This document shows, piece by piece, positions 16,220 to 24,805 of a DNA stretch of 64,000 nucleotides. A program made the position numbers and the translations under genes. Position 1 is the stretch's first letter. Every line of letters starts with the position of its first letter. The stretch is taken from assembly GCA_044892525.1 (NCBI GenBank), contig CM097885.1:9364001-9428000 (forward strand), read 5' to 3'. Source of the stretch: Schmidtea polychroa (lineage: Eukaryota). The notes under the pieces were generated by a model. That model ran no database searches. It saw only the letters and a program-made list of their open reading frames with translations, and was not told where the DNA came from.

Positions 16220-16280
16220 GCAGGAGACGCGAAAATTTCTCTTTGCGCCAAGTAAGTATACAATATACAATTACAACAAC

Positions 16281-16590
16281 CGAGAAATAAATGTGCACAT
16301 TATGGGATCGATCCGGGGTGTGTTCGAAAGACTGGTGACGATAATTACCGGTTCGCCACCACACCCCGTTTCAATATTTTTTTTTTCATATTTATGTTTA
16401 AAAAATAATTAATTAATAAAAAAAATAAAATATACAAGATGTGTTTCCTAAGATACCCACACTATATATTTTTTTTAATATTTATTTTTAAAATTATTTT
16501 CAATATTATTTTCAAATTTTTAATATTATTTTATGTTGAAAAAAAACTAACCTCAGACATGATTTGAACCACTAGCATTTGAACCACTGT
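16281..16590 (+). repeat. Left 310-bp inverted repeat
   Basis: CGAGAAATAAATGTGCAC...GAACCACTGT. Confidence 0.95.
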
Positions 16591-16621
16591 GCCAGTCTAT
16601 TCCCACTGCGCTATCAGGGTT
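16539..16621 (-). ncRNA. Putative tRNA-like RNA polymerase III transcription unit
   Basis: A box TAGCGCAGTGG (16613-16603), B box GGTTCAAATC (16570-16561), T8 terminator, AACC/GGTT closing stem, internal ACTGGCA/TGCTAGT stem. Confidence 0.55.
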
Positions 16622-16712
16622 CTGATTTTTGTCATTTTTTTAAATTTTAATATATAAAAATGAATAATATAAATCTTAAAATTCAAGAAAAAAGTTGTGT
16701 AGTATGAACTCA

Positions 16713-16940
16713 TCATTCACAAGTATAAATCGATTCAAGTTCTTTAACTCTTTCCTGTAATTGTTTCATTTTCTTTAACCTTATCTCAGCAACTTCTACA
16801 GCTTTCATGTAAAAATGTCGATACTTTTCATTCTCTACCTCCAACTCTTCAATATATACTAATGGTTCTTCTCTTCTTTTCATTCTCTCAAGTTTAACTT
16901 CTTTCAATTCATTTCTCATTCTTTTAATTATATCATTCAT
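16713..16940 (-). CDS. Small coiled-coil-like protein of the Polinton unit (75 aa)
   Basis: Intact ORF, E/K-rich heptad-like pattern, preceded by TATAAAAATG like the MCP ORF. Confidence 0.55.
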   Translation of the reverse strand: MNDIIKRMRNELKEVKLERMKRREEPLVYIEELEVENEKYRHFYMKAVEVAEIRLKKMKQLQERVKELESIYTCE

Positions 16941-16986
16941 TTTTATAAATTATTTTTTACTGGTATATTAATTTTAATATATAAAA

Positions 16987-18273
16987 ATGAATAATATAAA
17001 AATTCAAGAAAAAAATAAATTAAATCTTGATTATAATAAAGAATTTACTCATGAAATCAAGAAAAATGATGTACTTAAAATCTCCTCAACTTCAGGATCT
17101 ATTGCAAACTTAAATCGTAGGGGTGATATAGTTTTTCAATCTCTTCAAACATCAAACCCTATAGATATTTGTAATGCCAAATTATATTATAAAATTGAAT
17201 TAGAAATTGAAGCAAACAAAGATATAACCCTAGAAAATAATTTCTTTCCAAATTTATTCTCCAACATGAGATTAAAACTAGGATCATCAGAAATTGAAAC
17301 TGTTTTACATCCAGGAGTATATTCTACAATGTTAAATTTTATTTTGACTGGTTGTGATTATAAAAACGAATATGGTGAATTAACAGGCTGGATTCCTGAT
17401 GTTAATAAAGGGGATTTAGATAAAGATGGTTTAGATTTAAATTATGGTTATTATAAAAGAGCTGAACTTTATAAATTTAAAAAATTTGAAGGTTATTTTG
17501 AATTAAAACATTTATTTGGATTCCTTCAAAACTATAATCGTATACTTCATAATGTTTTTATAGAATTAGTTTGTAATAGACTAGAAGGTGATAAAAGATT
17601 GTTCTATGGAGCTGCAGATACAAAAGCTAAATTAAAATTATCAACACTTGAATTGCATATACCTGAATGGACATTAAATCCACATTCTGAAATCAAACTC
17701 CTTGAAAAATTAAATTCCAACAAGTCTATAAATGTAAATTATTTAAATAGAATCTGTAGTGAATTTAGTATGACAGAGGGTTCAACATATTCTATAAAGG
17801 TAGCAAATTTAGCATACCGACCAAGATATATCTTGATTGGATTCAAAGAAGTAGATTCATCTTTCCAAAAAAATAACAATCTATTTATTCAAAAGATTGG
17901 AGATGATAATTTAAAAACAATCCAAATTCAATTAAATAATTCCTATTATCCAATAAATAGAATGGAGTTTAATATTGAAAAAAATGAAAACATATTCCCA
18001 TATTTAAATTATATTGAAACATGTCAAGACTTTAAAGTTGAACCACAATTAAGTCTAGAAGATTTCAAAAATTTATATTCTATATTTTGTATAAATGTAT
18101 CAGACCAAGATGATAGATTAGCCAAAAATAATGTTGATGTTACACTTCATGTAACAAAGGATTCTAATTTTAAAGCTAAAGTATATACATTAATATTAGA
18201 AGAAAAGAAAATAGAAATGAAATTGTATGGTGGAAAGATTTCAATAATTGAAAATGTCAGAGGTGATTCCTAG
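16987..18273 (+). CDS. Polinton major capsid protein (double jelly-roll), 428 aa
   Basis: Intact ORF; LENNFFPNLFSNMRLKLGSSEIE..HPG..STM, RPRYILIGF, IQLNNSYYP match Polinton MCP patterns; genomic context. Confidence 0.8.
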   Translation: MNNIKIQEKNKLNLDYNKEFTHEIKKNDVLKISSTSGSIANLNRRGDIVFQSLQTSNPIDICNAKLYYKIELEIEANKDITLENNFFPNLFSNMRLKLGSSEIETVLHPGVYSTMLNFILTGCDYKNEYGELTGWIPDVNKGDLDKDGLDLNYGYYKRAELYKFKKFEGYFELKHLFGFLQNYNRILHNVFIELVCNRLEGDKRLFYGAADTKAKLKLSTLELHIPEWTLNPHSEIKLLEKLNSNKSINVNYLNRICSEFSMTEGSTYSIKVANLAYRPRYILIGFKEVDSSFQKNNNLFIQKIGDDNLKTIQIQLNNSYYPINRMEFNIEKNENIFPYLNYIETCQDFKVEPQLSLEDFKNLYSIFCINVSDQDDRLAKNNVDVTLHVTKDSNFKAKVYTLILEEKKIEMKLYGGKISIIENVRGDS

Positions 18274-18301: not shown

Positions 18302-18766
18302 ATGTCTCTAAGTAAACCATATTGGAAATGTGAAACCTGCCAGTGTCAAGTTAGAAAACATCATAAAGGAAGCCATGTTAAAACTAAAAAACATTTAGCT
18401 CGATTAAATAATATTTTCAAAGAAACTCCAATGAATAATAATTTATGGTTAGAGTATAATCCTTCAACCAGATTCGCTTTTGAAAAAGAAGGAGCTGGAG
18501 GTGACCTACAATCTTCAAAAACAACATCTTCAATATTAAAACCCTTTACTACAGAAAAATATCCAGGCGAAAGACATTTATTCCGTCACAACTATACCGG
18601 ACCAGGAACACGTCTAGATATTAGATTAGATGAAAATAATAATCCCAAACAAGGAGAAGAACCAATAAATAGAATTGATCAAGCAGCTTTAAAACATGAC
18701 ATTGCATACAATTCAGAAGATCTTAGAGATAGACATGTTGCTGATGTTAATTTAATACATGATTAA
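18302..18766 (+). CDS. Zinc finger plus parvovirus-VP1-type phospholipase A2 domain protein
   Basis: CETC..HVKTKKH zinc finger; HNYTGPGT Ca-loop and NRIDQAALKHDIAY catalytic HD motif; in frame with the integrase past a single TAA. Confidence 0.85.
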   Translation: MSLSKPYWKCETCQCQVRKHHKGSHVKTKKHLARLNNIFKETPMNNNLWLEYNPSTRFAFEKEGAGGDLQSSKTTSSILKPFTTEKYPGERHLFRHNYTGPGTRLDIRLDENNNPKQGEEPINRIDQAALKHDIAYNSEDLRDRHVADVNLIHD

Positions 18767-18826
18767 AATAATATACAAAATCCATCAACCCAAGAAAAGA
18801 TTCAAAGAGCTCTAGTTAAATTAGCA

Positions 18827-19762
18827 ATGAAAGGTAAGATTTTTATAGGTGCAGGACTTCCTAGAATAGCAAAAGATGTTGCTAATAAAAAGATTATTGA
18901 ACAAGCAGACGCTGAAAGATCCCTTGAGAATATATCCAAGACTAGTTTATTAACCCCAACAGAATCAGAAATAAAATATGCTAATGAATTACACCATGAA
19001 TTTAGAAAAAATAAAAAATATTTAAAAGTTCAAGTACATGAAAAAGATCAAACATGGTCTGCTGATTTAGTCTTTATGCCCAAATCATCAAACCCTGAAA
19101 AATATAAAATAATTTTAACAGTAATAGATTTATATACAAGATTTGCTTTTGCAAGATGTTTAGAAAATAAAACAGGATATTCCATTACAGAAGCATTTGA
19201 AAATATATTTGAACAACATCAAAGAATTCCAAAATATTTATGGTGTGATAAAGGAACAGAATTTTATAACAAAGTTTTTACAAAGTTTTTAAATGAAAAT
19301 GATATTAAATTATATTCAACAGAAAACGAAGGAAAAGCAGTTGTAGTTGAAAGATTAAATAGAACATTAAAAAATAAAATGTGGAAATATTTTACTGCTA
19401 TTGGAAAACAAAAATGGAACAATGAATTGTTACAAAAGATTGTAAATGAATATAATAATGATGTACATAGTTCTATAAAATCAACACCTTTAAATGCTTC
19501 CTTGAATCCTTTGGAACTCGTGAATCCTGAAATAGTTAAAGTGGTAAATGAAAAACAAAAATTTAAAATTGGTGACCGCGTAAGAATATTTAAATATAAA
19601 AATAAATTTGAAAAAGGATTCACAGCAAAATGGACAAATGAAATTTTTATTATAAATAAAATACATCATACAATTCCAATAACATATGGTATCATCGATT
19701 TAAATAATGAAAAAATATTAGGTAGATTTTACAATAATGAACTACAGAAAACAAGTTTCTAA
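18827..19762 (+). CDS. Polinton retroviral-type (rve) integrase
   Basis: DDE triad WSADLV / WCDKGTEF / VERLNRTLK; KFKIGDRVRI...FEKGFTAKWTNEIF; no chromodomain. Confidence 0.9.
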   Translation: MKGKIFIGAGLPRIAKDVANKKIIEQADAERSLENISKTSLLTPTESEIKYANELHHEFRKNKKYLKVQVHEKDQTWSADLVFMPKSSNPEKYKIILTVIDLYTRFAFARCLENKTGYSITEAFENIFEQHQRIPKYLWCDKGTEFYNKVFTKFLNENDIKLYSTENEGKAVVVERLNRTLKNKMWKYFTAIGKQKWNNELLQKIVNEYNNDVHSSIKSTPLNASLNPLELVNPEIVKVVNEKQKFKIGDRVRIFKYKNKFEKGFTAKWTNEIFIINKIHHTIPITYGIIDLNNEKILGRFYNNELQKTSF

Positions 19763-19763
19763 A

Positions 19764-20360
19764 TCAAAACAAACTTTTCTTCATTTCAGCTTCTTCTCTA
19801 TCCAAATAAATATAATTATATTTTTCTTTCCAATGATTATCAACAAACATATCAAACATATTCTTATCAGGTTCAACATTTGAAAATAAATCATTATAAA
19901 TCATATTCTTGTCCCGTCGATCTAATTTAAAAAATATAAAACAATTAGAATTATTTCTTATAGAGTTTTTATCCAAAGCATAATAAGTTTGAGATATATA
20001 AATAACATTACAATTATTATTCCGTCCTCGTGTAAAGTAACTCTTTTGAATCTCTTGGTTTTTCATGTTGACAACATCATCAAATATAACTAAATTCTTT
20101 TTATTTCTAGGAAGTAAATCACAATGTAAAACATCTTCAGGTTTATTAGAGAATAAAACTTGAATCCCATGGTCTTCACAAATATAATCGTTGTTATTAC
20201 TAATATCTGATTCCATGATCTTTTCCTTGTACCAATCAACCATATCACAAGGTTGAAAAACTTCTTCAGGACATCTATGTTGGTTTTTAAAAATATCAAT
20301 TATTGCTTTTTTAGTTAATTTATTTTCAAATCCACATTTCAAAAGTTGTAATTCCGGTTG
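19764..20360 (-). pseudogene. 5'-truncated Polinton A32-like packaging ATPase
   Basis: KNLVIFDDV (Walker B), FTRGRNNNCNVIYISQTY, IRNNSN; Walker A missing, cut at ~20360. Confidence 0.85.
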
Positions 20361-20719
20361 ATTAATGGTTGTAGAATTAAAGAAGGTGGCATTCTTCCAT
20401 TAGCTGCTTTAATACCTGCAATCATTGCTGGTTTATCAGGTGCTGCTGGAATATCTGGAGGAATTGCAACTACAGCTCAAAAAGCTAAAGAATCTCAAAA
20501 GACAGACCTAGAAAAAGAAAAACTACAAACTGAAATCGATTCAATGAAGAAGAAGGGAGGGTCCGTTGGAAAAGGTCTTTATCTTAATCCATATGAAGGT
20601 CAAAAGTCCGAAGGTTAAAAGTCTGTTGGAAAGGGTCTTTATCTTGATCCTTATAAAGGCAGAGGTTTAAATGATTTTTTAAAAAATCAAATTTCTACAT
20701 CTGAATCTTTATCTTCAAA
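20358..20719 (+). pseudogene. Polinton Gly/Ala-rich virion core or membrane-active protein fragment
   Basis: EGGILPLAALIPAIIAGLSGAAGISGG and repeated GKGLYL(N/D)PY motifs; 5'-truncated, one internal stop, ends at the right IR. Confidence 0.6.
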
Positions 20720-21029
20720 ACAGTGGTTCAAATGCTAGTGGTTCAAATCATGTCTGAGGTTAGTTTTTTTTCAACATAAAATAATATTAAAAATTTGAAA
20801 ATAATATTGAAAATAATTTTAAAAATAAATATTAAAAAAAATATATAGTGTGGGTATCTTAGGAAACACATCTTGTATATTTTATTTTTTTTATTAATTA
20901 ATTATTTTTTAAACATAAATATGAAAAAAAAAATATTGAAACGGGGTGTGGTGGCGAACCGGTAATTATCGTCACCAGTCTTTCGAACACACCCCGGATC
21001 GATCCCATAATGTGCACATTTATTTCTCG
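20720..21029 (-). repeat. Right 310-bp inverted repeat
   Basis: Reverse complement of 16281-16590. Confidence 0.95.
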
Positions 21030-21421
21030 TTTGTTTTCGGACCTCTTTCGGATTCACTTTCGAATTCATTTGTACTTTCGAGCAGCACACTTAAAACGCC
21101 GATGAAATCGACTTCGTGAGCGAGAAGCGAATAATAAGGTGTGCTGCTATTATCGAATTGATTCTGATGTATGAGTCTGGCCAGCTTGTATATTGGAAGA
21201 GATTTGATAAACGAAAGTGGTTGAAATTGATAAATAAAAAAAAATGATCCGGATCAAAAAAAACTGTTGAGAGGACAGTGGAAAAAAAAAATAAAAAAAA
21301 AGATACCACTGTCCTCTCAGAGCAGTTTTACTATTTTCATAAATTTTTATGATGTTTTTATAATGTTTTTATTTTTTATTTTTTAATTAGTCAACTAGCA
21401 AGTTGCTATTTGACATCCTCA

Positions 21422-21695
21422 AGTAGTGTGGTTATATACCCAACCAAAATAGCCCTCTAACTTTTTCATAATACCATTTTCTTTTCTATTCTCTTTATGT
21501 TTTTAGTTTGAGGCTTTTGAGTTTGAGGCTTTAAAGATTAAAACAGTTAGAGTCATTAAGGGTGGTTGTTTTCAAAATATAGGGTTAAAATACTATAAAA
21601 GTATAAGTTTTAGGTTGTTTTTCTAATAGCTTAAGTGATTTGGAGGTATGTTTTTGTTGGGGGGCTGTTTTGGTTGGGTATATAACCACACTACT
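21422..21695. mobile_element. Small TIR element with AGTAGT termini
   Basis: 34-bp TIRs AGTAGTGTGGTTATATACCCAACCAAAATAGCCC / GGGCTGTTTTGGTTGGGTATATAACCACACTACT (1 mismatch); no TSD seen. Confidence 0.6.
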
Positions 21696-22588: not shown

Positions 22589-24805
22589 CCTTCAAATGGT
22601 ATTCATTTGTACCAACGCTAACCGCGTTAAGGACAAAATTGTCTACCATATATTTTTTGTATCAAAATGTAACAAAAACAAAATTTTTTTAAGTTCATTA
22701 GTTTTTTATTTACATTCAAATATATAAAACAAAAATAAAAATTCAAAAAACTATTCAAAATTTTAACCAAAATAATATAAAATGAACTTAACATAATAAA
22801 TTTCTTTAATTTTTCAATTATTATGACAAGCAGGACAAATATATTTTACATGGTTTTTGCATACATAATTTTTACATTTATTACATTTTATTGTGGTTTT
22901 CCCCGTTCTGATAGGACAAGTAGAACACATGCCTCTTTTCGAAGCTGTAGGCTTCGAAGATCCGCCAGCATCATCTTGGTTTCTTTGAGCTCCCTGAATA
23001 ATATTTCTCGCGGCAAGTCCTCTAGGTAAATGTTGTCGGCTTAGCATTTGAGGTTTTATCAAACTATCACCTAATTTTTCCAAAAATAAACGTCTCTTAC
23101 TCAAACTATTACAATTCCAAGATAAATCAACTTCCTTGTAAAGTACGAAAGCATTGTAAGCAGATATATCTAACATATTGCAAAAAACAACGAATGGCCA
23201 TCTTCTAGATTTTCTTTTCGTAGAATAACAGGATACCATTTTATCTAAAGTATCCACTCCGCCTTTTGTGGCATTATAATATTTGATAATTTCAGGTTTA
23301 CGTTGAGGTTCATTAGTTATAACTTCATCAGACAAATGTAGAGTACTTTGCATCACTACGCATCGATATTTTTTAGGTACATAAGATACTAGTGTTGTAT
23401 CTTTTGTAAAAACAAATTTTGATGTATATTGTGGCAAAGATCTTGTATTCAAAATTTCTGGTGGGATTGTTGGTTTATTTTTTCTTAGTGTACCCACCAT
23501 TATTATAGATTTTTCCAGGAGTTTTTGGCCAAGCTGATATGATGTGAAAAAATTGTCGAGTGTTATGTTGTGACCTTTGAGACCCCTCACTAAATCTATT
23601 ACAATTCTCATACCTTGATTTGTTTCGGGAGCAGCATCCGGTTGTTTTCCTAAATATGGCTGTATTTTCCAAGCGTAGTAAGACTTGCTGCAAGCTGCAA
23701 TCCAAATATTTAATCCCATATTTCGCAGGTTTATTTTTCATATATTGGCGAAAAGGACATCGACCACGAAAACCAAGTAGTTGTTCGTCAACTGTCACAT
23801 TCTCTGATGGATTATAAAACATGGGTAACCTTTCACTCCATGCATCCCACAATTCTCGGGATTGGCATTTGTCATTCATACGTCTTTTTGACCGGGTTTC
23901 TTTTTTATCAAATCTAAGAATTTTTGAAATATTTTCAAATCTTTTCAATGGCATGGTTGCACGTAACAAAGGTCTACCCGTAGTTTCATGCCATAAGCTT
24001 TCAGTTGCTTCATTTTTTGACTTATAAACCCCCACTAAAATCAAGCATCCAAAATAGGAATAAAGTTCAGTTGCATCCAAATCCTTCCAACTATCTCCAA
24101 AAACGGTGTTTCCTTCACTGTTTGAGTTTTTCAAAATCATATTTTCAATAGCTTTCGGAAAAAATATCATGAATGCACTGTTTATATCAGTGATTCGGCT
24201 AGCTGCATACCTAGTAATTCCCGGAGTCATATTCAATATATTTTCTGCTCGATTGCGATACAAATTGGTACTAACAGGTTTTTGATGCCACAATACTGTC
24301 TTATCTTTCGATAAAAAACTATTTGGCTGTACATCGCCTAAACTTTCCTGATCAGAACTCGAATACTCGCTATCATTAAAAACATGGTCATCATCAGATG
24401 GATCACCTTCGCTACCACTAAAAACTAAATCTTGAATTTCTTCATCGGTTAAATTTTGATGTGTCATCATTTTGAAAACCCACAAAATAATAATTTAGAA
24501 CAAATAACATATGTTTGTTGCAAACATATGTCAAATCAAAAATCATATGTTTGTTGTAAACAGGTAAAAACAAATCATGTTTGAACTGGAATTTCATTAT
24601 AGACATTTTTGTCCACATTACGGTCAATGTGCATTTATTTATACCTAGAAATCTGTATAACACCATAAAATAAATTAAGCGGCAAATTATTAATTAAAAA
24701 AAAAGAATTTACATTGAAAAATTTTTCAAACTTAAGTTTGTATTCAGGCGTTATTTACATTTAAAAAATAATTTTGACAAAAATGTCCACAATACCATAT
24801 AAAGG
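22589..24805 (-). mobile_element. Near full-length piggyBac transposon
   Basis: TTAA on both sides; TIRs CCTTCAAATGGTATT / AATACCATATAAAGG. Confidence 0.92.
22814..24468 (-). pseudogene. piggyBac transposase with one frameshift (~23715)
   Basis: VDEQL..FRGRCPFRQYM.NKPAKYG, LDNFFTS, YNATKGGVDTLD, C-terminal Cys-rich domain. Confidence 0.9.

Follow-up and report, generated by a model that had tools for sequence, protein, structure and literature searches.

Polinton/Maverick elements end in long TIRs with AGT-type termini and are bounded by a 6-bp target-site duplication, and these ends are usually regarded as plain replication and integration signals. To our knowledge, how the elements stay expressed and evade silencing after integration is an open question. 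In our literature search, whose reach left most subscription papers and Repbase reports outside, we found no account of Pol III promoter units in the TIRs of Polintons, and the statement of the original prediction for this locus that Polintons have no established VA-like equivalent holds within the same reach.

Adenovirus VA RNAs inhibit PKR or compete for Dicer/Exportin-5, and the TMERs of murine gammaherpesvirus 68 join a tRNA-like head to pre-miRNA hairpins. According to the available part of PMC8223928, their type 2 promoters have a triplicated A box, while adenovirus VA RNA is described, in the available part of PMC7589676, as a molecule of ~160 nt with a terminal stem and a central domain, together with a very stable apical stem. 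Nearer to the Polintons, whose gene set comprises a protein-primed PolB, an rve integrase, a packaging ATPase and a jelly-roll capsid, tRNAs have been flagged in some MELD viruses (both from the accessible portion of PMC8502044), and cloverleaf tRNAs detected by ARAGORN or Rfam are known in polinton-like viruses and virophages, where a translation aid has been proposed (PMC12220804, in part). In fission yeast, the barrier at the centromeric cen1 tDNA-Ala needs the A box and the full Pol III complex (PMC2040200, in part). B-box clusters in the inverted repeats IR-L/IR-R bound a chromatin domain, and these repeats favour its silencing (PMC7474672, in part).

The unit presented here, Z, shares features with each of these systems. 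Like tDNA/TFIIIC barriers, it has Pol III internal boxes at a domain edge in inverted repeats, and in both it is the boxes that matter, not the RNA fold (as far as described in the available parts of PMC2040200 and PMC7474672); unlike them, it lies in a mobile virus-like element and has a degenerate tRNA body, and its barrier activity and factor binding are putative readings of the sequence. Intragenic boxes A and B, a T-run terminator, a DNA-virus context and a proposed tRNA origin are common to Z and adenovirus VA RNAI/II (PMC7589676, in part). As with the TMERs, several tRNA-like type 2 promoters are clustered in this element, but Z stops at a T8 run without a hairpin and has a duplicated B region where the TMERs have a triplicated A box. 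The tRNA genes of polinton-like viruses, virophages and MELD viruses are, like Z, tRNA-related cargo in Polinton-related elements, whereas Z has neither cloverleaf nor anticodon arm and sits in the TIR. Judged by comparison of its copies, Z is a real, selected, element-borne Pol III promoter unit, and we give about an even chance to the reading that it would act in cis, as a TFIIIC/Pol III site at the inner edge of both TIRs of a very abundant Polinton lineage.

Layout of unit Z and of the Polinton around it

Unit Z lies on the minus strand of the window (the whole 64-kb stretch of DNA analysed, from an AT-rich eukaryotic genome of 781 Mb), with the following parts:

16539..16620, minus strand: unit Z, a type 2 Pol III promoter unit of probable tRNA descent; 16620 is the start expected if the A box lies at +8 as in tRNA geometry
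16603..16613, minus strand: A box of unit Z; one common variant among copies, A/G at the purine position
16577..16585, minus strand: B1, imperfect B-box copy of unit Z, within a 15-16-nt tandem duplication; constraint weaker than in B2
16561..16570, minus strand: B2, canonical B box of unit Z, 43 nt from the A box; no shared variants in three samples
16539..16546, minus strand: T8 run of unit Z, Pol III terminator-like; at least 5 T in 96 of 96 flank-anchored units

The A box and the T8 run are thus where they had been predicted on this strand. The duplicated B box, also predicted, stands as far as B2 is concerned, which is canonical; the first word, B1, lacks the final C of a B box, tolerates an insertion, and is part of the 15-16-nt duplication, which is unstable and occurs in one, two or three copies depending on the element copy. 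A one-B-box variant of Z, 16 nt shorter, is itself amplified, and some element copies carry the unit in tandem pairs. The layout of A box, duplicated B region and T run is that of an element-borne type 2 Pol III promoter, as originally described: A and B boxes are intragenic, their spacing is workable (43–44 nt from A to B2, the spacing in the host tRNA genes measured), and a T-run terminator follows. A scan for A box, B box and T run gave a single match in the 64-kb window and none in 50 block-shuffled windows, and a T7 run 10–25 nt downstream is found at just 48 of 1795 non-coding element positions. ARAGORN detected no tRNA in the window and Rfam gave no match to Z; by these two tools and by the pairing under tRNA geometry given below, the acceptor, D, anticodon and T stems of a cloverleaf are absent from Z, in keeping with the original prediction.

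The element that contains Z has these features in the window:

16275..16590, no strand: portion of the left TIR for which pairing with the right TIR persists, its outer part being lost; contains only the head (16368-16301) of a second unit, W
20720..21695, no strand: right TIR, starting at the deletion junction and running up to the ...ACTACT end of the element
20720..20771, plus strand: 3' half of unit Z (B1, B2, T8) without an A box, a remnant of an internal deletion
16713..16949, minus strand: small ORF of 78 aa (stop to stop) that faces outward, located between capsid gene and unit Z; no family; missing in many copies
16987..18273, plus strand: double jelly-roll capsid gene (PF21738), divergent from unit Z
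18302..18766, plus strand: phospholipase A2-like ORF (PF08398)
18767..19762, plus strand: rve integrase (PF00665)
19764..20399, minus strand: packaging-ATPase-like frame; no Pfam match in the window, while the aligned ORF of copy L134 matches Pox_A32
20352..20618, plus strand: remnant of a pX-like ORF, whose aligned counterpart in L134 has a weak match to Adeno_PX that stays below cut-off

This copy is damaged: its left arm is cut at 16275, its interior is deleted with the pX-like region abutting the TIR at 20720, and the polymerase side is lost. In a copy with both ends (L133/L134), the TIRs are 995 bp long and 99% identical, the ends read AGTAGT and each flank shows the same 6-bp target-site duplication; this copy includes frames for DNA_pol_B_2 (PolB) and a Pox_A32-type ATPase, with its polymerase and capsid frames in pieces. 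Taken together, the window and L133/L134 hold the long TIR, the termini, the 6-bp target-site duplication, PolB, rve, ATPase and jelly-roll capsid of a Polinton/Maverick. In L133/L134, the TIR stops 17 nt upstream of the A box, so that each end holds a complete unit Z that faces outward; one unit is head to head with the polymerase region, the other with the capsid gene. Measured from the A box, the polymerase region has its first ATG at 87 nt and the capsid ATG is at 329–374 nt (329 in L133/L134). The original claim that the unit crosses the left inverted repeat while the right one keeps only the B-box half is accordingly true of the window's damaged copy, where the half unit is found on the right because the internal deletion has its junction at 20720, and does not extend to the two-ended copy.

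The surrounding sequence shows further rearrangement. The AT-rich start region of the capsid gene (16952-17014) is duplicated 327 bp away, directly upstream of Z (16625-16693). An inverted copy of the terminal 40 bp (21422-21461 and 21656-21695) bounds the outermost 270 bp of the TIR, and short-ended relatives retain only a block of this kind. Just right of the element, a two-frame ORF (22814-24494, minus strand) resembles a piggyBac-type transposase by its motifs.

Constraint on the boxes and the fold of the predicted RNA

For the conservation test, units were located by their flanks and not by their boxes, the samples were chosen without reference to the unit, and a column was counted as variant when it held a variant common to at least two copies. 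Variant columns made up 1 of 30 in the boxes and 21 of 48 elsewhere for the capsid-selected set of 21 flank-anchored units (p 6.5e-5), 1 of 30 and 11 of 48 for 17 units from 20 loci selected by the sister unit Y (p 0.024), and 3 of 30 and 21 of 49 for 28 rows from 30 W-selected loci, one row being a false anchor (p 0.002), with all three p values overstating independence since the copies are related and column counts are not independent events. The three samples agree that the boxes are conserved across copies of the element. The common A-box variant falls where the consensus permits either purine, and in the W-selected sample a change in the last base of the A box is common to two copies. For the 18 capsid-selected loci with Z, diversity is 0.00–0.02 in the boxes, compared with 0.026 for second codon positions of the capsid gene and 0.152 for its four-fold sites. 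The leader, the B1-B2 spacer and the 3' part vary at neutral-like rates, while the stretch from the A box to B1, with a diversity of 0.08–0.14, lies below the leader and the 3' part. What selection appears to preserve is the set of signals read by TFIIIC, together with the terminator, rather than the RNA.

The fold of Z shows no comparable constraint. Its folding energy gives z = +0.48 relative to shuffles and those of five variants range from −0.29 to +0.66 (5 of 5), with the host tRNA-Cys at −2.1, so that the closing and internal stems originally described are no better than chance. These stems are paired in 77% of cells, a level reached by 71 of 500 shuffles, and tRNA geometry imposed on Z pairs 53% of cells. 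The covariation proposed as a check across copies also fails to appear: RNAalifold on 42 distinct Z variants gives six pairs, none of them compensated, a common variant breaks the sole consensus hairpin, and the covariation score of the proposed stems, which exceeds that of 499 of 500 shuffles, is outscored by the same structure slid two columns. The RNA of Z, if made, would have no fixed shape, and it is likely to be an unstructured molecule with a predicted length of ~75 nt.

These results bear on what Z could do as an RNA. A type 2 promoter in a virus-like element related to adenoviruses, in tandem pairs in some copies, would suit the VA-RNA analogue raised in the original prediction, read here as a double-stranded decoy against host dsRNA/RNAi defence; we consider this very improbable for Z, since its predicted RNA is half the length (~75 vs. 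~160 nt), lacks the apical stem, central domain and stable terminal stem described in the available part of PMC7589676, has no stable or conserved fold and no Rfam match, and varies freely in its 5' leader and 3' part. The short RNA might also be the product while acting in trans without a fixed fold, either by giving rise to small RNAs that resemble tRNA fragments or by serving La-type/RNA-sensing proteins as a decoy with a 5'-triphosphate and a U tail. Of interest here are the ~2,470 templates, the tandem unit pairs of some copies and the fact that the A box and T run have been kept alongside the B box, since binding-only sites need neither (PMC2040200, in part). The neutral-like variation of the leader, B1-B2 spacer and 3' part, the amplification of a variant that is 16 nt shorter with one B box, and the common variant that breaks the only consensus hairpin weigh on the other side, and we hold a trans-acting RNA to be possible but unlikely.

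The cis role of Z is favoured because the boxes, their spacing and the T run are constrained while the fold is not, and the second option of the original prediction, a TFIIIC-bound insulator, would fit best on the same ground. Several observations temper this preference. The column counts come from related copies, in which end-swapping could homogenise the core; the covariation score of the stems did exceed 499 of 500 shuffles, even if the slid structure scored higher; and the low diversity between the A box and B1 leaves room for a role of the RNA sequence.

A folded neighbour in the same TIR

Outward of Z, starting ~330 nt from its A box on the same strand, lies W, to which the original prediction did not draw attention and which is whole only in the right TIR of the window:

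20942..21329, plus strand: W, a strongly folded, structure-conserved RNA candidate of roughly 390 nt with approximate limits and a tRNA-like head
21150..21210, plus strand: G-U-rich pre-miRNA-sized hairpin within W, folding on the outward strand only

Read on the outward strand, W folds with a z of −7.4, against −5.6 for the opposite strand. Across 46 copies, 64 chosen pairs hold in 99.3% of cells, and two compensated pairs are found in 20 cells, a level that 0 of 500 shuffles reached, the structure tested being taken from the alignment's own prediction. The ~61-nt hairpin folds at near −24 kcal/mol outward vs. −2 kcal/mol for the reverse complement. Of its 25 pairs, 10 show one-sided variation and still pair. 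The outward-only fold and the one-sided changes that keep the pairing therefore indicate an RNA structure rather than a DNA palindrome. The head of W combines an A-box-like word with a D-arm-like stem, its B-box-like word is non-canonical, and the first T5 run is at 21344; all Rfam matches to W are below cut-off. The W pattern has 2,627 matches in the genome, and all 30 of the W loci sampled have Z upstream, identified by anchor in 27 and by place in 3.

As in the TMERs, W has a tRNA-like head followed by pre-miRNA-sized hairpins, so that the TMER-type layout would be carried by W, a putative transcript, and not by Z. Compared with adenovirus VA RNA, W is structured but ~390 nt long, and its B box is non-canonical. 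On these features, W is a better candidate than Z for a virus-style defence-blocking small RNA; the VA-RNA label is unsupported for Z and may apply to W. It can be tentatively proposed, as a possibility that we consider far from probable, that the two form a swappable TIR module in which Z would assemble the Pol III machinery and shield the ends while W would yield a tRNA-headed hairpin RNA, to be cut into viral microRNAs or to jam host RNA silencing.

Copies, origin and a possible role in cis

The Z pattern has 2,467 exact matches in the genome and one variant has 307. Such a copy number would also be expected of a dispersed SINE head that happens to sit in the element, a reading that we find scarcely credible: 40 of 40 sampled matches (taken in list order from 100 listed places of the 307-match variant, on contig C1 only) lie in element ends, with TIR sequence downstream and element interior upstream, the sole tandem array found consists of element ends, and no body or tail follows the T run. 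The refuting case named in the original prediction, a SINE head dispersed independently of Polintons, is therefore not what these contig C1 matches show. A host tandem array as the source of Z was considered and rejected, as the strand excess among matches to the Z variant was traced to an array of element ends on contig C3. This array, from position 25,478,841, repeats with a 964/976-bp period a segment in which the one-B-box Z is joined to the complete W region and to 189 bp from the start of the capsid gene; it has at least 53 repeats among those listed and about 120 by the strand excess, and its far end was not found in two further stretches examined. It could be a small-RNA source for or against the element.

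Presence of the module varies among related elements. Among 30 loci selected by the capsid profile, which include four pairs of identical capsids, 18 carry Z, 9 have short ends with neither Z nor W, 2 are cut at the Z flank and 1 is set aside. On a capsid tree built from 39 of 77 capsid rows, ends without the unit occur in both main branches, beside unit-bearing ends, which makes Z-W an accessory module with more than one loss or swap in its history. This counts against a cis role to the extent that the module is dispensable. Farther afield, IMG/VR scans with a capsid and a capsid alignment gave no relative, and the A/B/T unit was found in 0 of 20 metagenome loci with capsid identity of 24–52%, loci of 1–9 kb in none of which an element end was located.

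In many copies, two further tRNA-like units separate the capsid gene from Z, namely X and Y (1,306 matches for Y); the window's lineage has neither. Y passes the Rfam tRNA model (32.4 bits, cut-off 29), and in its 5' half it matches host tRNA-Cys best among four isotypes tested. Beyond the boxes, Z has no match to tRNA-Cys (p 0.8–0.9), while 52 of 79 columns agree between Y and the window's variant of Z (p 0.002 with boxes held fixed); for a second Z variant, the similarity to Y beyond the boxes is not significant. From this similarity to Y, we infer that Z probably descends from a tRNA gene. The 490-bp segment with X and Y is 94–97% identical to subrepeats of the host rDNA intergenic spacer on two contigs, and these two stretches contain no other Polinton sequence and no Z. 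Capture of X and Y from the rDNA spacer by the element seems the likelier direction. Boxes shared by X, Y and Z were also considered as a sign of selection inside the element and set aside, as X and Y match the host spacer at 94–97%; only variation among Z copies therefore informs on selection.

In the spacer itself (contigs C21 and C115; L195:5559-6350 and L194:297-1268), tRNA-like subrepeats follow one another in tandem at ~243-bp intervals, X coming first and two or three Y after it. They run antisense to the rRNA genes, and every one has an A box, a T run and a B box spaced at 44 nt. One subrepeat passes the Rfam tRNA model at 38.8 bits, and a further tRNA-like unit upstream (L195:5559) was not seen in the Polinton. 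At 32-57 kb of contig C1, 5.8S genes are found no more than a few kb to tens of kb away from element ends that carry the unit, and this proximity is a possible capture route for the rDNA spacer. Host tRNA genes are found in long tandem arrays (contig C1:269.25-269.29 Mb and other contigs), including Lys and Arg arrays; the tRNA-Cys pattern has 994 matches, with a 281-bp period among the matches listed.

That the element did capture host rDNA-spacer DNA with X and Y, a pair which the window's lineage lacks, also makes room for Z as a passenger, a captured tRNA-like scrap in the TIR that is linked to W and has no function of its own. Z and W do travel together (in 30 of 30 W-selected loci), and ends with neither exist. 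A passenger is hard to reconcile with variation that avoids the boxes in three samples, or with a B2 that has no shared variant in any of them, and we regard it as rather doubtful.

Returning to the cis role, TFIIIC, TFIIIB and Pol III would assemble on Z at the inner edge of each TIR, and any unstructured ~75-nt RNA would be a by-product of the complex. Z has the conserved B box and A box at a domain edge that mark a barrier-type site, and the survival of both A box and T run suggests that the complete machinery assembles and makes a short RNA, as at the tDNA barrier of fission yeast. The complex would sit beside the inward promoters of the polymerase and capsid genes, the two outermost, and beside W; we know of no mechanism that would let a B box activate a separate gene downstream of it. 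In what is the weakest step of the proposal, the bound complex might keep nucleosomes off the element ends and form a barrier to silencing that enters from the flanks. The B-box repeats described in the available part of PMC7474672 favour silencing of the domain they enclose, so the sign of such a boundary is not predictable.

A Pol III promoter under apparent selection in both TIRs, beside an RNA candidate with conserved structure, bears on how Polintons are expressed and evade silencing. If active, ~2,500 scattered TFIIIC sites could shape host chromatin, and close relatives without the module provide a natural control. If the joint reading of Z and W is true, an animal Polinton would have a counter-defence like those of VA RNAs and TMERs, which could help explain its thousands of copies.
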